This document shows, piece after piece, positions 3,668 through 47,206 of a stretch of 64,000 bases of DNA. Below the pieces are notes generated by a model. It searched no databases and was not told where the DNA came from. It saw nothing but the letters and a program-made list of their open reading frames with translations. The position numbers and the translations under genes are program-made. The stretch is from an uncultured Chloroflexia bacterium (GTDB lineage Bacteria; Chloroflexota; Limnocylindria; Limnocylindrales; CSP1-4). The stretch is taken from assembly GCA_963810725.1 (NCBI GenBank), contig CAWEOO010000008.1, positions 588,189-652,188 on the forward strand, in the 5' to 3' direction. The stretch's first letter is position 1. The number at the start of each line of letters is the position of its first letter.

Positions 3668-4837
3668 CTAGAGGTTCCCGCGCTTCTCCTGCTCGCGCTC
3701 GATCGCCTCGAAGAGCGCCTTGAAGTTGCCGACCCCGAAGCCGCGCGAGCCGTGGCGCTCGATGATCTCGAAGAAGAACGTCGGGCGGTCCTGGACCGGG
3801 CGCGTGAAGATCTGGAGCAGGTAGCCCTCCTCATCGCGGTCGGCTTCGATGCCGAGCTCCTCGAGCGTATCGATCGGCACGCCGACGTCGCCGACGCGAT
3901 CGGCCAGCGTCGCGTAGTACTCGTGCGGCAGGCCGAGGAATTCGACCCCGTTCTCGCGCAGCCGCCGGACCGTGCCGACGATGTCCTCGGTGCGCAGCGC
4001 GATGTGCTGGCAGCCGGGCGATCGATACCAGTCGAGGTATTCCTGGATCTGGCTCTTCTTCTTGCCCGAGGCGGGCTCATTGATCGGGAACTTGATCCGG
4101 CCGTTGCCGTTGGTCATGACCTTCGACATCAGCGCGCTGTAGTCGGTGTGGATGACCTTGTCGTCGTAATGGATCAGCTGGGCGAAGCCCAGCACGTCCC
4201 GGTAGAAGTCCACGAACTTGTCCATGTCGCCGAGACCGACGTTGCCGACGCAGTGATCGACCTCGAGCAGATTCAGGCCTCCGGCCGCGCGGGCCGGCGA
4301 CGCGACCTTGCGGTAGCCGGGCGCGAACACGCCGTGGTAGTCGCGCCGGTCCACGAATGAGTGAAGCGTCTCGCCATACGTCCGGATGGCCGCACGGCGG
4401 AGCGTGCCGTCCTCCCCGCCGTCGATCTCCGTGGGCTCCATGGCCGAGGCCGCGCCCCGCGTCGTCGTCTCGCGCCAGGCCGACTCCACGTCCGCGACCG
4501 CGAACGCGATGTCGTGCACGCCGTCACCGTGCTCACGCAGGTGCTCGGCGATCTCGCCATCTGGCGTGAGCGGGGCGGTGAACACGAACCGGATCCCGTT
4601 CTGGACCATGACGTAGCTCGCGCGGTCGCGCACCTTCGTCTCGAGGCCGCTGAACGCGACCGGCGTGAAGCCCCACAGCGCCCGGTAGTACGCGGAGGCC
4701 TGGCGGGCGTTGCCGACCCAGAACTCGACGTGGTCGATGCCATCGATCGGCAGGAAATCGGCGGCCTTGGCATACGCGTCGGCGTCGACGCGGGCGCCGG
4801 CCTGGTTGGCGGCCCCTCGGGCGACCGTGTCGGTCAT
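3668..4837 (-). CDS. hppD: 4-hydroxyphenylpyruvate dioxygenase
   Basis: ORF 3668..5035 with start at ATG 4837 (MTDTVARG). Diagnostic stretches are present: HVEFWVGNA, GVHDIAF, HCVGNV, INEPASGKKKSQIQEYLD, GCQHIAL, LLQIFT, FFEIIER and the GFGVGNFKALFEAIEREQ tail. Confidence 0.93.
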   Translation of the reverse strand: MTDTVARGAANQAGARVDADAYAKAADFLPIDGIDHVEFWVGNARQASAYYRALWGFTPVAFSGLETKVRDRASYVMVQNGIRFVFTAPLTPDGEIAEHLREHGDGVHDIAFAVADVESAWRETTTRGAASAMEPTEIDGGEDGTLRRAAIRTYGETLHSFVDRRDYHGVFAPGYRKVASPARAAGGLNLLEVDHCVGNVGLGDMDKFVDFYRDVLGFAQLIHYDDKVIHTDYSALMSKVMTNGNGRIKFPINEPASGKKKSQIQEYLDWYRSPGCQHIALRTEDIVGTVRRLRENGVEFLGLPHEYYATLADRVGDVGVPIDTLEELGIEADRDEEGYLLQIFTRPVQDRPTFFFEIIERHGSRGFGVGNFKALFEAIEREQEKRGNL

Positions 4838-4913
4838 CGTGCATCTCCGCTGCAGGCGGGTTCCGAGCTGGTCAGTACCGTCATCGTACGCCGCGCGTGC
4901 GACACTGGCGACC

Positions 4914-5426
4914 ATGACGACGTCGGACCTTCGCAGCGACCTGGACCGCCTCGCCGATGCCCGCGCCGACTTCGAGGCGCTGTCCGGCCGCGTGGCCGCC
5001 GGCGAGCCGTGGCCGCTGGCCGCGGCGTTCGGCACGGAGCCCGAGGCGTCCTGGGGGCCCCGCGAAGTCCTCGCTCACGTCGCCGAGATGCTCCCCTTCT
5101 GGCTCGGTGAGCTGGAGCGGGTCGTGGCTGGCGACGGCGGATCCCCGGTCCCGTTCGGGCGCATCGCGGACGATGCCCTGCGCATCGGGCTGATCGACCG
5201 GGACCGATCATTGCCGTTGCGCGTCCTGTTCGTGCGCATCGACGCCGGCCTGGGCGCGTGGCTCGACCGGCTGCCGACGCTGACCGACACGGACCGGGCG
5301 AAGGTCGGCCTGCATCCGCGACTGGGCGAGATGCCCGTTGGCGGGATCGCCGAGCAATTCGTCATCGGCCACGGCGAAGAGCACGTCGTCCAGCTGGGCT
5401 CGATCCTGGAGTCCGCCGGGCACTGA
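4914..5426 (+). CDS. DinB-family (mycothiol-dependent maleylpyruvate isomerase-like) protein
   Basis: ORF 4710..5426 with start at ATG 4914 (MTTSDLRS). The product is a four-helix DinB-like protein with His positions (VLAHVAEM, VIGHGEEHV). Confidence 0.65.
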   Translation: MTTSDLRSDLDRLADARADFEALSGRVAAGEPWPLAAAFGTEPEASWGPREVLAHVAEMLPFWLGELERVVAGDGGSPVPFGRIADDALRIGLIDRDRSLPLRVLFVRIDAGLGAWLDRLPTLTDTDRAKVGLHPRLGEMPVGGIAEQFVIGHGEEHVVQLGSILESAGH

Positions 5427-23380: not shown

Positions 23381-25030
23381 GTGGCGACCACCGTCCTGCA
23401 CCCCGCCGCTCCGACCTACCGCAGCAGCCTGTACGACTGGGTGACGACCACCGATCACAAGAAGATCGGGATCCTGTACGTCGTGAATTCGTTCCTGTTC
23501 TTCTTCATCGGCGGGATCCTGGCCCTGCTCGTACGCACGGAGCTCGCGGTCCCGGGCCTGCAGTTCCTGACGGACCAGACCTACAACGAAGTCTTCACGA
23601 TGCACGCGACGCTGATGATCTTCCTGTTCATCATCCCGATGCTGGCCGGCTTCGGGAACTACGTCGTCCCGCTCCAGATCGGGGCGCCCGACATGGCCTT
23701 CCCGCGCATCAACGCGCTGTCGTTCTGGATGCTGCCGCTCGGCGGGTTCCTGATCCTGCTGGGGTTCGTCACAGGCGGCGCCGCGGCGGCCGGCTGGACG
23801 TCCTACAGCCCGCTGGCCCAGGACCGCCCATTGGCCTCGGTCGGGTCCGGGCAGGACCTGTGGATCGTCGGGCTCGCCCTCGTGGGCACGAGCTCGATCC
23901 TGGGCGCGGTCAACTTCCTCGTCACGATCTTCAAGATGCGCGCCCCGGGAATGACGCTGTTCCGGATGTCGCTGCTGACGTGGACCGTCCTCGTGACCGC
24001 CGTGCTCGTGCTGCTGGCCACGCCGGTGTTCACGAGCGCCGTGATCATGCTGTTCATCGATCGCAACCTCGGCGGGAGCTTCTTCGATCCGGCCAACGGC
24101 GGCGACGCGATCCTCTACCAGAACATCTTCTGGTTCTACTCGCATCCGGCCGTCTACGTGATGATCCTCATCGCGATGGGCACGGTCAGCGAGATCCTGC
24201 CCGTCTTCAGCCGCAAACCCCTGTTCGGGTACAAGGCGTTCGTCTTCGCGACGGTGGGCATCGGTGCGCTCGGCTTCTCCGTGTGGGCGCACCACATGTT
24301 CACGACCGGCGCGGTGTACCTGCCGTTCTTCAGCCTCATGACGTTCCTGATCGCCGTCCCGACCGGCGTGAAGTTCTTCAACTGGATCTTTACGATGTGG
24401 CGCGGCCAGCTCCGCCTGGCCACACCCCTCCTCTTTGCGCTCGGCTTCCTCACGATGTTCCTGATCGGCGGCATCAACGGGGCCTTCAGCGCGTCGGTGC
24501 CCGTCGACTTCGCGCTCCACGACACGTACTTCGTCGTCGCGCACATCCATTACGTGCTCTTTGGAGGGTCCGTGTTCGGGGTGATGGCCGGCCTCTACTA
24601 CTGGTTCCCCAAGATGACCGGCCGGATGCTCAACGAGACCCTGGGCAAGGTCCAGTTCGTGCTGATGTTCATCGGGTTCAACCTGACGTTCTTCCCGATG
24701 CACGAGCTGGGGCTGTCGGGCATGCCGCGGCGCATCGCCGACTACTCGTCGACGGCCGGCTGGAACGACCTCAACCTGGCCGCCACCATCGGTGGCTTCC
24801 TCATCGCCGCCAGCATGGTGCCGCTGCTGTGGAACGTCTTCGTCTCGCTGCGCAGTGGCCAGATCGCCGGCGACGACCCGTGGGAGGGCAACACGCTCGA
24901 GTGGGCGACCACGTCGCCACCGCCGCCGTACAACTTCGACCGGCTGCCGGAGATCCGCTCGGAGCGACCGGTGTTCGACGTCCGCCACGGTCCCAAGCCG
25001 GGCTCGGCTGTTGCCCAGACGGAGCACTGA
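23381..25030 (+). CDS. ctaD: cytochrome c oxidase subunit I
   Basis: ORF 23381..25030. It is a 12-TM protein with WFYSHPAVYVMIL, HHMFTTG and HDTYFVVAHIHYVL. Confidence 0.95.
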   Translation: MATTVLHPAAPTYRSSLYDWVTTTDHKKIGILYVVNSFLFFFIGGILALLVRTELAVPGLQFLTDQTYNEVFTMHATLMIFLFIIPMLAGFGNYVVPLQIGAPDMAFPRINALSFWMLPLGGFLILLGFVTGGAAAAGWTSYSPLAQDRPLASVGSGQDLWIVGLALVGTSSILGAVNFLVTIFKMRAPGMTLFRMSLLTWTVLVTAVLVLLATPVFTSAVIMLFIDRNLGGSFFDPANGGDAILYQNIFWFYSHPAVYVMILIAMGTVSEILPVFSRKPLFGYKAFVFATVGIGALGFSVWAHHMFTTGAVYLPFFSLMTFLIAVPTGVKFFNWIFTMWRGQLRLATPLLFALGFLTMFLIGGINGAFSASVPVDFALHDTYFVVAHIHYVLFGGSVFGVMAGLYYWFPKMTGRMLNETLGKVQFVLMFIGFNLTFFPMHELGLSGMPRRIADYSSTAGWNDLNLAATIGGFLIAASMVPLLWNVFVSLRSGQIAGDDPWEGNTLEWATTSPPPPYNFDRLPEIRSERPVFDVRHGPKPGSAVAQTEH

Positions 25031-41088: not shown

Positions 41089-42288
41089 ATGCGGACGGAC
41101 CTCGGCTGGAGCCTGGATCCCGGGGTCACGTTCCTCAACCACGGCTCGTTCGGGGCGTGCCCTGCGGCCGTGTTGGCGGTACAGCGCGAGTGGCGCGATC
41201 GCCTGGAGCGCGAACCGGTCACGTTCCTGGACCGCGAGCTGGAGGGCCACCTCGACCATGCCCGGAAGGTCCTCGGTGCCTTTCTTGGGGCCGACCCCGA
41301 CGGGCTCGTGTTCGTGCCCAACGCCACGACGGCGTGCAATGCGGTCCTCGCTTCGCTGCGTTTCGAAGCCCGCGACGAGATCCTGACCACCGACCACGAG
41401 TACAACGCCATCCTCAACACAGTCCGCGCCGCGGCGGACCGCGACGGCGCGCGGGTCGTGCTGGCCGCGCTGCCGTTCCCGACGACCGGCGAAGACGAGC
41501 TCGTCGATGCGGTGATGGCTGCCGTCACGCCGCGCACCCGGCTGGCCGTGCTCAGCCATGTCACGAGCCCAACCGGGCTCGTCCTGCCGATCGAGCGGAT
41601 CGTTCGTGAACTGGACGACCGCGGGATCGACACGCTCGTCGACGGCGCGCACACGCCGGGGATGGTGCCGCTCGCGCTCGATGCGCTCGGGGCGGCCTAC
41701 TACACCGGCAACGGTCACAAGTGGCTGTGCGGTCCCAAGGGGGCCGCGTTCCTGTGGGTCCGTGCCGATCGGCGGGACGCGATCCACCCTACGATCGTGT
41801 CGCATGGCGCCAACGCCACGCGCGTCGACCGGCCGCGGTTCCGCCTCGAGTTCGACTGGGTCGGGACCGGCGACCCCACGGCGGCCATCACGCTGCCCGC
41901 GGCGCTCGAGTGGATGGCGGCCCTCGAGCCCGGCGGGTGGCCCGCCGTCATGGCCGCGAACCGGGCGCTGGCGCTCGAGGCGCGCGATCGACTCGTGACC
42001 GCGCTCGGCGGCCCGCTGCCGGCGCCCGATGGGCTCATCGGATCGATGGCTGCGGTGCCGATCCCGGGCCTGCACACGGACGCGGAGGCCGCCTCGCTGC
42101 ACGAGGCGCTCTTCGAGGAGGATCGGATCGAGGTCCCGGTCGTCGCCTGGCCCGTGCCCGGCGCCCGCCCGACCCTGACGGATCCGCCGCGCGCCATCCT
42201 CGTGCGCGTCTCGGCGCAGCGCTACACCGAATCCGAGGACATCGAGCGGCTGGTCGCGGCGCTCGGCCGACGGCTGACCGCCGAGTAG
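41089..42288 (+). CDS. aminotransferase class V (isopenicillin-N epimerase / cysteine desulfurase-like)
   Basis: ORF 41089..42288. Motifs: LSHVTSPTG, DGAHTPG, and the PLP lysine motif GNGHKWLCGPKGAAFLWV. Confidence 0.8.
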   Translation: MRTDLGWSLDPGVTFLNHGSFGACPAAVLAVQREWRDRLEREPVTFLDRELEGHLDHARKVLGAFLGADPDGLVFVPNATTACNAVLASLRFEARDEILTTDHEYNAILNTVRAAADRDGARVVLAALPFPTTGEDELVDAVMAAVTPRTRLAVLSHVTSPTGLVLPIERIVRELDDRGIDTLVDGAHTPGMVPLALDALGAAYYTGNGHKWLCGPKGAAFLWVRADRRDAIHPTIVSHGANATRVDRPRFRLEFDWVGTGDPTAAITLPAALEWMAALEPGGWPAVMAANRALALEARDRLVTALGGPLPAPDGLIGSMAAVPIPGLHTDAEAASLHEALFEEDRIEVPVVAWPVPGARPTLTDPPRAILVRVSAQRYTESEDIERLVAALGRRLTAE

Positions 42289-42323
42289 ATCCCGCCCAGG
42301 AACCGGCTCGGGACACGAGCGAG
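42222..42323. repeat. direct repeat copy A (3' end of aminotransferase gene plus downstream)
   Basis: The core 42229-42323 aligns with 43558-43651. By hand alignment, 84 of 95 positions are identical with one 1-nt gap. Confidence 0.8.
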
Positions 42324-42338
42324 CTGCGCCGTGTTTCG

Positions 42339-43508
42339 CTAGTTCACGGCCACCATGATCGTGACCTTTCCCTCGCCGTCGTCCGGGACCTGCGCGTGAC
42401 CCGCTCCCAGGAACCCCCACTCGAAACCTCGCCAGATCTCGACCCGGTAGCCGGTCGCGGCCACGAAGTCCCATCGGCAGACGCCTCGCTCGTCGGTTAG
42501 GTGGATCACGTCCTCGACGAGAGCGCCCGGCACGTCCGAACGGACGAAGCAATCGACTTCAGGGACTGGCTTCCCCGCGAGGTCCAGCACTGTGATGGTC
42601 AGACTTCCCGTCCCGAGGTTGAGGGGAGGTCGGACCGTCGCATCGACGCGCATCTTTCCCTCGGCATCCAAGTGATCGATGATCTCGTCCTCGATCCCCG
42701 GGCGTGGGGCCTTCGTCCAAACGTCGATGACCACCATGTTCTCGGCGGGTCGGACCCCGCCTCCCTCGAGCTGGATGGCCTGCCGCCCAAACCACGTGAT
42801 CTCCTTCCGGATCGATGCACGAACGGGTTCGAGTTCTCGCAGCGACCATCGGACCTGGCGGACTTCGATCCGCACGGTCCCCGGCACGAACATCGCCGCG
42901 ATGGCCGATCGATGGGTCTCGATGTGGCCACTGAAGGAGGTCACCACCGTCCCGTCGTCCTTGACGAAGATGTCGGCCCAGTCCTCCGGGTGGGCGCGCC
43001 CGTACTCCGTCAGCGCTGGGCCCGCCATCTGCATGTCATCGAAGCGGGCGTCCCACGCCTCTGCCTCGGCCGGCGACATCAGGATGCGGCCCTCGCGGGT
43101 CACCGTCGAGCGATCGACTAGGAGGGCTCGGACGTTGGCCTCATCCGCGGGCAAGCCCACGCCCTCGCGAAGGCCCATCACCTCGTGCAGCCGGCGGTCG
43201 TCCATGAGCGCAGCCTCCTCGGGCGACACGCGGATGCCGTTCCAGGCGACCGATGCGGGGTCGGCGATGACGGTCTCGACCCAAACTTTGTCTGCGCGAA
43301 GGCCAGCAGCCGTGCGGGCATCGATGGACCGCACGACTTCCGGATCGGGACTGGGTGAGGGCGGTCCGGCGAAAGCGCACGACCCGATCGCGGCGGCAAG
43401 GGCAAGGAAACGAAGTACGGCCAGCAACCGCGCTCCGTCGCTCGATCTATCCCTCTTCGCGTCCCATCGCCGATCCATCGCCACCCCTGGGCTCGAATCA
43501 GACCCCAC
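42339..43508 (-). CDS. lipoprotein, hypothetical (bracketed by direct repeats)
   Basis: ORF 42339..43508. Signal peptide with lipobox (LAAAIGSCAF). The C-terminus has a beta-rich domain (TITVLDLAGKPVPEVDCFV...GYRVEIW). Confidence 0.6.
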   Translation of the reverse strand: MGSDSSPGVAMDRRWDAKRDRSSDGARLLAVLRFLALAAAIGSCAFAGPPSPSPDPEVVRSIDARTAAGLRADKVWVETVIADPASVAWNGIRVSPEEAALMDDRRLHEVMGLREGVGLPADEANVRALLVDRSTVTREGRILMSPAEAEAWDARFDDMQMAGPALTEYGRAHPEDWADIFVKDDGTVVTSFSGHIETHRSAIAAMFVPGTVRIEVRQVRWSLRELEPVRASIRKEITWFGRQAIQLEGGGVRPAENMVVIDVWTKAPRPGIEDEIIDHLDAEGKMRVDATVRPPLNLGTGSLTITVLDLAGKPVPEVDCFVRSDVPGALVEDVIHLTDERGVCRWDFVAATGYRVEIWRGFEWGFLGAGHAQVPDDGEGKVTIMVAVN

Positions 43509-43550
43509 CCGACCCTGTGCGTCTTCGGAGCATAGCGACGTGCCGAAGCC

Positions 43551-43651
43551 CTACAGAGAATCCGAGGACCTCGAGCGGTTGGTCATGGGGCTGGCCGGCG
43601 GCTGACCGCGGAATAGATCCCGCCCAGGAACCGGCTTGGGACGCGAGCGAG
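43551..43651. repeat. direct repeat copy B (relic aminotransferase 3' end; minus strand is the methyltransferase 3' end)
   Basis: The plus strand reads YRESEDLERLVMGLAGG*, compared with YTESEDIERLVAALGRRLTAE* in copy A. The minus strand reads LARVPSRFLGGIYSAVSRRP in both copies. Confidence 0.8.
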
Positions 43652-44227
43652 AGGCGTCGTGTCGACGAGGCCGGCTTCGGCGGCCATGCCGGGCGAAAGT
43701 CGTTGCCGTGAACGGGTGCGGGACCCAGGGATTGCCACGGTCCGCGTCGTACTCGACGACGATGAACGGCGCGCCGGGCCGCAGGTGCGACGCGAGCGAC
43801 CGGATGACCGCCACTTGGCGGTCGCGCGGCACGAAATGGAGGCTGTTGGCGGCGACCAACCCGTCGAGTGGCGGGAGCGCGAGGCGGGGCGGTGAAGTCG
43901 GCGACGAGGGTCGTCAGCGCCAGGACCGGGAAGCGCGCGGGCAGGATTTCCGCGTTCGACCGCAGCGCGCCGGCGTCCCGATCGAGCGCGACGATCCGGG
44001 CGCCCGGGCCGAGCAGGTCGGCGAGGGCCAGCGTGAACGCCCCCTCCCCCGCGCCGATGTCCGCCCAGGTGCCGCCGGCGCGTGGATCCCGCCCTCGATG
44101 AGGGCAACGTGGTCATCGATGATTCCATCGCTTCAGCCTACGTCCCGGGCGGACGGGGAAGCCGGGCGCGTGCGTCGGCGCCGCTATCGTCGAACGGGCG
44201 GGAGCCAGCGTCGCGAAATCGGTCCAT
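43583..44227 (-). pseudogene. class I SAM-dependent methyltransferase, multiply frame-disrupted
   Basis: Recognisable pieces lie in three different frames: DGIIDDHVALIEGG / GTWADIGAGEGAFTLALADLLGPGARIVALD (SAM motif I) / LDGLVAANSLHFVPRDRQVAVIRSLASHLRPGAPFIVVEYD / MAAEAGLVDTTPLARVPSRFLGGIYSAV. There are at least three shifts and an in-frame TGA near 44140. Confidence 0.55.
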
Positions 44228-44359: not shown

Positions 44360-47206
44360 TCAGCCGGTGTTCTGGAGGCCGGCTGCGACGCCGTTCACCG
44401 ACATCTGGACGAGGCGCAGGACCCGGCTGCGCTCGGGGTCGTCAGGTGGCAACGCGCGGAAGCGAGCAAGCAGCCGCACCTGGAGCTCGGACAGCGCGTC
44501 GACGTAGGGGTTGCGCAGCGCGATCGACCGCTGCAGCACGGGCGCCCCGTCGAGCAGGTGGTCGCGACCGGTCACCCGCAGGAGCAACCCGACCGTCCGG
44601 TGGTACTCCGCTTCGATCGTCTCCCAGCGACGCTCGCGGTCCGGGCTGGACGCGAGGGACGCGTACCGGCGGGCGACGCCCATGTCGGCCTTCGCCAGGA
44701 TCATCTCGGCGTTATCCAGCACGGACGCCAGGAACGGCCACGACCGGTAGAGCCGGCCGATCTCGGCGAGGCCCTCGTCGCCGTGCGCCGCGCGGAACGC
44801 CTCGAGCGCGGACCCAAGGCCGTACCAGCCGGGGACGTTGATGCGCGACTGGGACCAGGCAAAGGTCCACGGGATCGCGCGCAGCGCGTCGATCGGTGGC
44901 AGGTCGGCCTCGAACCCACCGGCGCGACCGCGGGCCGCCGGCCGCGAGCCGAGACGCAGGTCGGACAGCTCCGCGATCGGGGTGATGTCGCGGAAGAAGG
45001 CCGCGAACCCCGGGTCGTCGTGGATCAGCGCGCGGTATGCGGCCCGGGCAGTGTCGGCAAGCTCGGCCAGCAGCGGGCCGCCGTCGCGCAGCGCTTCGGC
45101 CGCGGCGGCATCGTGCTCCGGGGTGGACGCGATGAGCGCCGCTCCGGTGAGCTGCTCGAGATGCCGCCGGGCGATGGCCGGGTCCGCGTAGTTGGCCGCG
45201 ATCACCTCGCCCTGCTCGGTCAGCTTGAGCCGCCCATCGACCGAGCCCGGCGCGCCGCCCAGGATCGCCCGGTTCGCCGGCCCACCGCCACGCCCGATGG
45301 CCCCGCCGCGGCCGTGGAACAGCGTCAGCTCGACGCCGTGTTCCCGCGCGACCGCCACGAGCGCCTCCTGGGCCCGGTGGAGCATCCAGGCCGCAGCCAG
45401 GAAGCCCGATTCCTTGTTCGAATCGGAGTAGCCGAGCATCACTTCCTGGCGATCGCCGCGGGTCGCGAGGTGGGCTCGGTACACCGGGTCGCGCAGCAGC
45501 TCGTCGAGGATGGGCCCGGCGCGGGCGAGCGCGTCGGACAATTCGAAGAGCGGCACGACATCGAGACGTGGCGTCAGGGCGTCGGTGCCGTCAATGGCCT
45601 CGGCACCGTCGCCGGCCGCGCCCCGCTCGAGCGCGATGCGCGCAAGTCGCAGCACGTCGGTCACGTCATGCGGCTCCGCCGTGAACGAGACCACGACCCG
45701 CCGGCACGCGTCCTCCCCGAACCGCTCCTGCAGCGCGACGATGGACCGGAACGTGGCCAGCACCTCCCCGAGCGTGACGCCCGGGGCGACCTCGAGCGCG
45801 TCCTCGGCCTCCGCCGAGCCCGACCCCGACGCGGCGTCGAGCGCCGTGAGCGCCGCGCGGTGGACGGCGGCGTGCTGGCGGACCTCCAGCGACGCGAGGT
45901 GGAACCCGAACGTCGCCAGCTGCCAGCGCAGCTCGGCGACGTCGCCCCAGGCGACCCGCGCCAGCCCGTCGTCGACGAGGGCGGCCTGGAGCTCGGCCAG
46001 CTCCGCATCGAGGTCGGCGGCGCTGTCGTAGTGCCCAGAGCGCGGACCCGTGTCGTCGGCCAGCGTCACCCGCGTGCGGCGGAGCCGCTCGGCGATGAAC
46101 CCGAACCGCTGGCGGTACGGCTCGTCCGGGAAGCGGCGGCGCAGCTGCCGATCCGTCTCGGGCAGCGCCTCGGCGTCGCGTGCGAGGCGGTTCGCCAGCG
46201 GTCGGGCGACGCGAGTCGACACCGTGGCCGCGGACACGGTCTGCATGAGCCGTAGCGCGACCGCCTCGTACCCGTGGAGGACGTGGTCCGCCTGGATGCG
46301 CAGGGTCCGTTCGGTCATCTCGGCCGTCACGGCCGGATTCCCGTCGCGGTCGCCACCGATCCACGATCCGAAGCGCAGGAACGCCGGCACGCGCGGCGGT
46401 CGGGTGCCGGTCCGCGGGCCGCGGTCGCCGGGGAGGTCCAGCGCCGCATCGGTCGTGCGGTACAGCCGCGGCACGAGCGTGAACAGCGTCGCATCGAACA
46501 CGGCCATCGCCGTGCGCACCTCGTCGAGCGGCTCGGGCGCCACGGAGCGCAGGTCGGAGGTCCGCCACATGAGCGTGATCTCCTCGCGCAGGCGGCGGCG
46601 GACCTCGCGGTCCTCTGATGGGGTCAGCCGCGGGTCGTCCAGCCGCTCGAGGAGCACGGCGCAGCGACGCAATGCGATGAGCGCCGTCCGCCGGCGGGCC
46701 TCCGTCGGATGGGCGGTCAGGACCGGCGTGATCTGCAGCCGTTCGAGCATGTCGTCGAGCGCCGTCTCATCGAGCCCGGCTCGGCGCAGCCGCCCGATCG
46801 CCTCCGCGACCGAGTCGTCCAGCACGCCGTCACGCGCCGAGCGCTCCCGTCGCCGAAGCGCCCTCACCCGGCCGCGCGCCTCGGCGAGGTTCACGAGCTG
46901 GAAATACAGGGAGAACGCCGAGATGACCGCCTCGACGGCCCCCAGGTCCAGCCCGTCGAGCTCGGCTTCGACCCGGCCGCGGAGCGCGGGATCGTCGCCC
47001 CGTCGCAGGTCGATAGCGGCTCGACGAAGGCGTTCGACGAGCTCGAAGACCGGCTGACCCGCCTGCTCCGCGATGACCTGCCCAAGGAGTGCGCCGAGGA
47101 GTCGGACTTCGAGCGCCAGGGGATCGCGTGCCCCCGCCGACCCGATGCCGGTGGGCTCGGCTCCGCGTGCGCGCGACGCGGTCTTCCGTCCGCCCGGTGG
47201 CGTCAC
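44360..47206 (-). CDS. ppc: phosphoenolpyruvate carboxylase
   Basis: ORF 44360..47206, 948 aa and intact. Motifs: VLTAHPTE, GYSDSNKESG, FHGRGGAIGRGG, and the C-terminal LQNTG. Confidence 0.93.
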   Translation of the reverse strand: MTPPGGRKTASRARGAEPTGIGSAGARDPLALEVRLLGALLGQVIAEQAGQPVFELVERLRRAAIDLRRGDDPALRGRVEAELDGLDLGAVEAVISAFSLYFQLVNLAEARGRVRALRRRERSARDGVLDDSVAEAIGRLRRAGLDETALDDMLERLQITPVLTAHPTEARRRTALIALRRCAVLLERLDDPRLTPSEDREVRRRLREEITLMWRTSDLRSVAPEPLDEVRTAMAVFDATLFTLVPRLYRTTDAALDLPGDRGPRTGTRPPRVPAFLRFGSWIGGDRDGNPAVTAEMTERTLRIQADHVLHGYEAVALRLMQTVSAATVSTRVARPLANRLARDAEALPETDRQLRRRFPDEPYRQRFGFIAERLRRTRVTLADDTGPRSGHYDSAADLDAELAELQAALVDDGLARVAWGDVAELRWQLATFGFHLASLEVRQHAAVHRAALTALDAASGSGSAEAEDALEVAPGVTLGEVLATFRSIVALQERFGEDACRRVVVSFTAEPHDVTDVLRLARIALERGAAGDGAEAIDGTDALTPRLDVVPLFELSDALARAGPILDELLRDPVYRAHLATRGDRQEVMLGYSDSNKESGFLAAAWMLHRAQEALVAVAREHGVELTLFHGRGGAIGRGGGPANRAILGGAPGSVDGRLKLTEQGEVIAANYADPAIARRHLEQLTGAALIASTPEHDAAAAEALRDGGPLLAELADTARAAYRALIHDDPGFAAFFRDITPIAELSDLRLGSRPAARGRAGGFEADLPPIDALRAIPWTFAWSQSRINVPGWYGLGSALEAFRAAHGDEGLAEIGRLYRSWPFLASVLDNAEMILAKADMGVARRYASLASSPDRERRWETIEAEYHRTVGLLLRVTGRDHLLDGAPVLQRSIALRNPYVDALSELQVRLLARFRALPPDDPERSRVLRLVQMSVNGVAAGLQNTG

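Follow-up and report, generated by a model that had tools for sequence, protein, structure and literature searches.

A lipoprotein gene placed between two copies of an overlapping gene junction in an uncultured Limnocylindria bacterium

How can a new gene enter between two convergent genes whose 3′ ends share coding sequence? Convergent genes with dozens of coding bases in common seem locked, as any insertion between them should destroy one of the two. This question is raised by a lipoprotein gene (LIPO) in a 64,000-nucleotide stretch of DNA (the window, positions 588,189 to 652,188 of contig CAWEOO010000008.1, GenBank assembly GCA_963810725.1) from an uncultured Chloroflexia bacterium of the Limnocylindria lineage CSP1-4. 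LIPO lies between the genes of a class-V aminotransferase (AT) and a class-I S-adenosylmethionine (SAM)-dependent methyltransferase (MT), which converge on it, and it is bracketed by two long direct repeats. Our analysis strongly supports a history in which both repeats are descendants of a single overlapping AT/MT junction, and LIPO was placed between them when this junction was duplicated. The assembly holding the window (G000) is a metagenome-assembled genome (MAG) of 3.5 Mb in 10 contigs that is 79% complete; the genomes compared with it are also MAGs, which carry some indel errors.

A repeat finder reported two blocks of similarity around LIPO, one pairing 42265-42334 with 43593-43662 (70 nt, 89% identity) and the other pairing 42206-42263 with 43535-43592 (58 nt, 78% identity). 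The blocks are shifted by one base relative to each other, and in the MAFFT alignment they form a single continuous repeat with one indel. The two copies, named A and B (Table 1), are ~122 nt long (122-129 nt, as the left edge is fuzzy between 42206 and 42215) and 85% identical. BLAST of the whole G000 genome aligned 42215-42334 with 43544-43662 (85% over 120 nt, E = 8.3e-32), so the similarity holds under alignment statistics. An earlier note on this DNA, made from its letters alone, had described a two-copy direct repeat of 95 nt; the repeat and its two copies are real, and the measured length is ~122 nt. Neither whole-genome BLAST nor self-BLAST found a third copy in the 3.5 Mb of G000, where the next matches are at chance level.

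Each copy carries the tail of one flanking gene in working order and a relic of the other. On the plus strand, copy A contains the final ~24 codons of AT with a functional TAG stop (42286-42288). On its minus strand there is a non-coding relic of the MT tail (42262-42336), which is 84% identical over 25 amino acids by tblastn. Conversely, the minus strand of copy B encodes the MT tail (...LARVPSRFLGGIYSAVSRRPAP, stop at 43583-43585), and its plus strand reads as a relic of the AT tail (...YRESEDLERLVMGLAGG, then a stop; 43552-43605). These translations agree with the reading of both copies, on both strands, in the earlier note.

The ancestral state of the junction can be seen in relatives. Orthologues of AT (63-72% amino acid identity) were found in 15 of 24 genomes of the same genus; 14 loci were fetched, and the five local proteins were mapped on them. 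The conserved order consists of an S51 peptidase and AT on one strand, facing MT and phosphoenolpyruvate (PEP) carboxylase on the other. Among the mapped loci, no same-genus relative has LIPO at the AT-MT slot, and in six same-genus genomes (G007, G009, G016, G013, G011 and G017) AT and MT are directly convergent without it. Their 3′ ends overlap by 67 nt in G007, which is the closest genome, by 49 nt in G009, by 46 nt in G016 and by 4 nt in G013 and G011; in G017 they abut. Both repeat copies align over their full length to these single-copy junctions, with the AT stop codon in the same column, and no relative was found that has the three-gene order and lacks the repeats. In G013 (~2481-2484 of locus L033) and G011 (~2206-2209 of locus L040), it is the stop codons of AT and MT that overlap by 4 nt, in G013 as the common palindromic TTAA, which gives TAA on both strands; this is a different resolution of the same junction.

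The ancestral overlap was most likely 67 nt long (42222-42288), because in both G007 and the lineage of contig L049, described below, the MT stop codon is the CTA equivalent to 42222-42224. The earlier note had proposed that AT and MT once converged with overlapping 3′ ends, which the relatives bear out; the overlap probably measured 67 nt and not ~34 nt. The duplicated segment comprises the entire overlap together with flanks of about 9 nt and 46 nt.

Across the genus, the content of the AT-MT slot varies. MT is missing in G006, G023 and G019, and a small protein that is secreted or anchored and has a CPNMG motif is found at the slot in G010, G005 and the metagenome contig L059 (inserts at 2428-3057 of L029, 2727-4510 of L036 and 133-638 of L059, respectively). 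The slot of G005 also holds a glucose/sorbosone-dehydrogenase-like lipoprotein gene, which overlaps the end of AT. No junction repeats were found around these other inserts in G005, G010 or L059.

The arrangement found in the window is present in a second lineage. L049, a contig of 1821 nt from ENA, is colinear with the window at 81% DNA identity and carries a LIPO homologue of 78% identity, in the order MT tail, copy B, LIPO, copy A and AT tail. L060, a contig from another metagenome (Joint Genome Institute, JGI), is 99.9% identical to L049 over 1354 nt. Because the structure has been assembled three times in two species, we regard it as real biology. A chimeric or mis-joined contig could in principle have produced the repeat, as G000 is an incomplete MAG with some frame-shift errors elsewhere, but the two independent assemblies in another species, from ENA and JGI metagenomes, leave this explanation practically no weight, and the copies differ at 15% of positions, unlike a collapsed or duplicated read path.

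The second lineage also allows the duplication to be dated. The four repeat copies are 84-91% identical to one another and at most 77% identical to any single-copy junction. Between the lineages, the two copies A share 91% identity and the two copies B 84%; within the genomes, A and B share 85% in G000 and 88.5% in L049. Since the four copies are closer to one another than to single-copy junctions, these alignments strongly support one event of duplication plus insertion, later than the divergence from G007 and shortly before that of G000 and L049. Concerted evolution is not indicated, as the identity between copies A across lineages (91%) exceeds that between A and B within either genome. The comparison also shows that the second copy was made from the lineage's own junction and not from a distant donor. 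Copy B of G000 forms a long branch, which fits the decay of MT in this genome. The history put forward in the earlier note, in which AT and MT converged and LIPO was then placed between them with the overlap copied on both sides, is supported by both the relatives and the two contigs. We note that the AT-only part of copy A (42213-42254) is identical at 42 of 42 nt between G000 and L049 despite ~81% identity overall, which is unusually strong conservation for a gene tail.

Although both flanking genes received a complete end, only AT has remained intact in G000. Three-frame translation and DNA alignment to orthologues place the start codon of G000 MT out of frame, and the frame shifts near 44075 (+2), 43890 (+1) and 43689 (+1). 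In addition, a 1-nt deletion in the last MT codons within copy B (43592/3) leads to an earlier stop. With at least four lesions, MT in G000 is now a probable pseudogene. The Pfam families Methyltransf_12, Methyltransf_25 and Methyltransf_11 matched both the stitched G000 sequence and the G007 orthologue. The other genes of the neighbourhood, namely AT, LIPO and those of the S51 peptidase and PEP carboxylase, with a combined length of ~5.9 kb, are intact. In L049 the sampled 3′ 240 nt of MT are in frame, and the open reading frame (ORF) extends to the ancestral stop codon, which lies within copy B at 7-14 nt from its left edge.

The affinities of MT could fit another history, in which LIPO first replaced most of MT, leaving a 46-nt relic beside AT, and MT was later regained on a fragment from a close relative carrying the AT tail, MT and PEP carboxylase. 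Such a fragment would enter by homology-facilitated illegitimate recombination, homologous at the PEP carboxylase side and illegitimate at the other. G000 MT is indeed closest to G009 and G010 (70-71% amino acid identity, compared with 63% for G007), whereas AT and PEP carboxylase are closest to G007. However, the affinities of G000 MT are unreliable given its shortness and degeneration, and copies A and B resemble each other as closely as the copies A of the two lineages do, which means that the donor would have been nearly the same lineage. As this history also requires more events than the alternatives, we give it very little credence.

Table 1 Features at the AT-MT junction (coordinates in the window)
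Feature	Coordinates	Strand	Basis and remarks
Class-V aminotransferase (AT), 399 aa, intact	41089..42288	+	Pfam PF00266, E 9e-32
Repeat copy A	42213..42334	.	Duplicate of the ancestral AT/MT overlapping junction; repeat finder, MAFFT, BLAST
Insert, 1200 nt, one LIPO ORF and a 56-nt leader	42335..43534	-	Homology to single-copy junctions ends at its edges
Lipoprotein gene (LIPO), 379 aa, ATG at 43478	42339..43478 (or 43508)	-	Signal peptide, lipobox AIGSC
LIPO leader	43479..43534	-	Purine-rich GGGGTGG directly upstream of the ATG
Repeat copy B	43542..43662	.	Repeat finder, MAFFT, alignment to single-copy junctions
Class-I SAM-dependent methyltransferase (MT), probable pseudogene	43583..44130	-	Three-frame translation, DNA alignment to orthologues
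PEP carboxylase, right-hand synteny anchor	44360..47206	-	Conserved across relatives

What lies between the repeats is little more than LIPO itself, with 4 nt between its stop codon and copy A. LIPO is predicted to encode an envelope lipoprotein. It has no Pfam family; in the AlphaFold model, which is of modest quality (pLDDT, predicted local distance difference test, 66), the C-terminal ~90 residues form a transthyretin- or carboxypeptidase-regulatory-like beta sandwich, and only this part matched known folds. As the gene is on the same strand as MT and downstream of it, it is probably read from transcription on the MT side. The GC content of the insert is 66.7%, compared with 72-75% in the flanks, which places it in the 6th percentile of genome windows, and its GC content at third codon positions is 0.81, compared with 0.87-0.91. 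The composition of LIPO is thus only mildly deviant, and that of its homologue on contig L050 is similarly deviant relative to its own neighbour. For the LIPO leader and N-terminus, no homologue was found in the G000 genome or in any fetched locus.

In and around the insert we found neither a transposase or integrase nor terminal inverted repeats, as the earlier note had stated. Genes for tyrosine or serine recombinases are absent from the insert and from about 6 kb around it, where the genes are conserved and of ordinary kinds. This bears on the possibility that the repeats are the attL and attR sites of a site-specific element, which brought a replacement junction with it and has since lost everything except its LIPO cargo. 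Integrase-mediated insertion typically leaves direct repeats of 50-150 nt by which the 3′ end of the target gene is restored, and the repeats at this locus do contain a perfectly identical 24-nt core (the TAGATCCCGCCCAGGAACCGGCT region) between more diverged arms. The core, however, coincides with the conserved SRFLGGIY motif of MT, which accounts for its conservation. Moreover, both lineages contain one ORF and 56 nt, with neither an integrase gene or fragment nor room for one; LIPO occurs in other contexts without such repeats; and the copies are closer to each other than to the junctions of relatives, which indicates that the second copy came from the same genome and was not brought by a travelling element. 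On these grounds an origin as attachment sites seems highly improbable.

The source of LIPO may be sought among its homologues. In a large protein collection there are five others at 39-78% identity, the closest at 78%, 74% and 59%, and within the genus only distant paralogues (25-28%) were found, all elsewhere; a search for further copies showed that LIPO occupies a single locus in G000. The 74% homologue lies at 1100-2253 of L050, a contig from a close relative, between a carboxyltransferase (CT) gene and a MOSC-domain gene. The CT of L050 is 94% identical at the amino acid level (87% at the nucleotide level) to that at C8:1388784-1389875 of G000, and homology between the two genomes ends at the CT stop codon and restarts 20 nt before the MOSC start. 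In G000 this CT-MOSC slot (C8:1387338-1388783) holds a membrane protein and an unrelated lipoprotein (lipobox LTGC), and no LIPO relic was found in it. The 59% homologue (L051) is in a third context, adjoining alaS. No flanking repeats were found around LIPO in L050 or L051.

LIPO family members sit in at least three unrelated slots with sharp boundaries at the level of the ORF, and the secreted or lipoprotein genes found in the AT-MT and CT-MOSC slots differ from genome to genome. It appears that genes for envelope proteins are exchanged singly, as one-gene units, with breakpoints that are sharp at the ends of the flanking genes. LIPO identities (77.7% between G000 and L049, 74% and 73% to L050) give the grouping ((G000, L049), L050), which implies that LIPO moved between slots within the group around the time the lineages separated. 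An origin of LIPO elsewhere in the gene pool of the same genus is strongly supported by these comparisons. A further-reaching proposal would be that Limnocylindria have a recurrent, so far undescribed mode of relocating single envelope-protein genes, nearly ORF-precise and with long (~100 nt) target duplications; such relocation could use single-stranded or reverse-transcribed copies that anneal at replication forks. We consider this very unlikely.

The CT-MOSC slot is also relevant to a purely rearrangement-based history, in which a tandem duplication of great length reached from within the AT tail to a point immediately upstream of a distant LIPO on the same strand and so produced the joint between leader and junction. 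A later deletion would have taken away the first copies from MT up to the neighbours of LIPO, and the original LIPO would then have been lost. The orientation fits, because in G000 this slot is on the same contig and strand, about 757 kb away, and such a history accounts for the partial duplicate found at one of the joints. Three events are required, among them a duplication of hundreds of kilobases and a deletion to match, and G000 retains neither a second LIPO nor a relic of one, the CT-MOSC slot included. The upstream sequence in L050 is also not homologous to the leader and N-terminus of LIPO in G000 and L049. This history thus appears improbable.

With moderate confidence, we favour a one-step illegitimate insertion that did not use a mobile-element enzyme, whether by template switching or by end-joining capture. 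Of the two routes, replicative template switching, of the kind known as microhomology-mediated break-induced replication (MMBIR) or fork stalling and template switching (FoSTeS), would most likely be the one taken. In this process, a 3′ end broken near 42334 would prime on the LIPO locus through a few bases of microhomology and copy about 1.2 kb of it. A switch back to the sister template, at a point some 122 nt behind the break, would then duplicate this stretch. Two novel joints would result, one between the end of copy A and the stop side of LIPO, and the other between the LIPO leader and the start of copy B. In a closely related route, a DNA fragment would be captured by Ku-dependent end joining at a staggered break whose ends are filled in, which is possible since G000 has a gene with a Ku domain (PF02735, C7:102008-102544, E = 7e-41).

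MMBIR predicts both a duplication, when the final switch returns behind the break, and inserted sequences at junctions (PMC2621351). The insert in the window is bracketed by a 122-nt duplication, and a sister copy of LIPO is found in another slot of a close relative. At the right-hand joint, the LIPO 3′ flank in L050 and L049 (TAG-CGACCA...) and the target (...CGTGTCGAC...) have GTCG / T-G-(G)-TCG in common, a weak microhomology of 4-5 nt. Whatever the mechanism, a selection filter explains the length of the duplication. An insertion within the 67-nt overlap would spare both genes only if the entire overlap were copied on both sides, and the boundaries of the duplication lie just outside the overlap on both sides; we see a long duplication because selection keeps only those insertions that leave AT and MT whole.

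One event is preferred over two because the insert sits exactly at the joint between the copies. In a two-step history, a tandem duplication of ~122 nt, by slippage or unequal exchange, would first have uncoupled the genes, and LIPO would have been inserted later by an unrelated illegitimate event. Short tandem duplications are common, the length of the AT/MT junction is labile in G013, G011 and G017 (25-30 extra nt, with the 4-nt overlap in the first two), and the slot accepts other genes in G005, G010 and L059. However, with ~86 nt of dispensable relic available, the chance that an independent insertion would fall within a few nt of the joint is about 0.05, and no genome with the duplication only was found among the relatives and the collections scanned. 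Those scans, which searched metagenome and genome collections for exact patterns of the repeat core, returned only L060, distant junctions and chance matches. We consider two steps unlikely, while giving them some weight.

Several points weigh against one-step insertion by template switching. The mechanism rests on a single weak microhomology at the right-hand joint, which is read from a relative that is ~80% identical and is not the donor. Some 19% of nucleotide divergence has accumulated since the event and has eroded the details of the junctions, and no intermediate state was found among the genomes and metagenomes scanned. The selection-filter argument is weakened by the pseudogene state of MT in G000, although the sampled 3′ part of MT in L049 is intact. 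Finally, template switching over such distances is documented in Escherichia coli and eukaryotes, not in Chloroflexota.

Some further observations concern the repeats and the surrounding genome. The wider neighbourhood includes a GAF histidine kinase and a response regulator, together with the S51 peptidase on the AT side. The ends of copy A form a perfect 8-nt inverted repeat (42213-42220 and 42325-42332, GGCGCAGC...GCTGCGCC), which is probably due to chance, as it is kept in neither L049 nor copy B. As a structured RNA, the repeat had no Rfam match at E<=1 and folding z-scores of -0.4, +0.3 and -0.6, and this interpretation was rejected; so was a dispersed element of the repetitive extragenic palindromic (REP) or miniature inverted-repeat transposable element (MITE) type, as there are only two genomic copies. 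Promoter and terminator scans gave no signal above shuffled sequences. Self-BLAST of G000, screened for direct repeats that are at least 50 nt long and lie within 20 kb of each other, revealed no second duplicated gene junction; the matches were otherwise paralogous genes, protein-internal repeats, intergenic repeat families and one duplicate of a tRNA 3′ end. In this last pair, a 49-nt tRNA-3′-end-like sequence is duplicated 2.2 kb apart with 96% identity (C8:21540-21588 and 23785-23834), which, by its sequence, is the classic signature of a putative small integrated element or remnant. Two other pairs, C8:1092165-1092256 with 1095078-1095175 and C7:3781-3938 with 4829-4986, are palindrome-rich and intergenic (95-160 nt, 80-83% identity, a few kb apart), and look like intergenic repeat elements rather than gene-junction duplicates.

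The locus resembles several known systems and differs from each of them. In transposition, as here, direct repeats of the target flank the inserted segment. Target-site duplications of transposons are 2-15 bp long and arise when a transposase acts on an element whose ends are defined. The duplication described here, at ~122 nt, is far longer, as the earlier note had pointed out; there is no transposase and there are no terminal repeats, the insert is single-copy, and LIPO occurs elsewhere without repeats. Islands between attL and attR share with this locus the direct repeats of ~100 nt that bracket an insert and the intact 3′ end of each flanking gene, but here there is no integrase or island, only one ORF, and the duplicate comes from the host's own junction. 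The locus is a non-transposon illegitimate insertion with a flanking duplication, and it lacks the transposase, terminal inverted repeats, short duplication and multiple copies that define insertion sequences or transposons, as well as the recombinase gene of integrase islands.

A designed parallel is phage T7.1, in which Chan, Kosuri and Endy reportedly separated overlapping genes in 2005 by duplicating the sequence they share. There too, each gene obtains its own complete copy and DNA can be placed between them; T7.1 was deliberate design, whereas the arrangement here arose naturally and became fixed. Double illegitimate recombination in Acinetobacter baylyi is said to have been described by Hulter and Wackernagel in 2008, and its products are reportedly mostly micro-indels or replacements with small deletions. 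[quoted passage not shown] On the same partial account, a ~120-nt duplication with a 1.2-kb insert is not its typical product. The closest likeness in form is to MMBIR/FoSTeS, with a templated insertion flanked by a duplication behind the break, no recombinase genes and microhomology at one junction (Hastings et al. 2009, PMC2621351). Such a process had earlier been put forward to explain lac amplification in E. coli. The documented cases of MMBIR are copy-number changes in E. coli, yeast and humans and do not include the fixation of a new gene between two genes of a bacterium, and in the present case there is one junction only with a weak 4-5-nt microhomology, and the process is known from sequence alone.

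What is described here happened once and does not amount to a new molecular system, and its reach is modest. The locus shows a natural unlocking of two overlapping genes: the overlap was duplicated, and a new gene now lies between the copies with the ends of both neighbours intact. Relatives keep the ancestral state, and two lineages are fixed for the derived one. The event leaves a searchable signature, a long direct repeat bearing relic tails of both neighbours, and the locus can serve as a worked example for models of how gene overlaps evolve and of how accessory genes are gained when no mobile element is involved.

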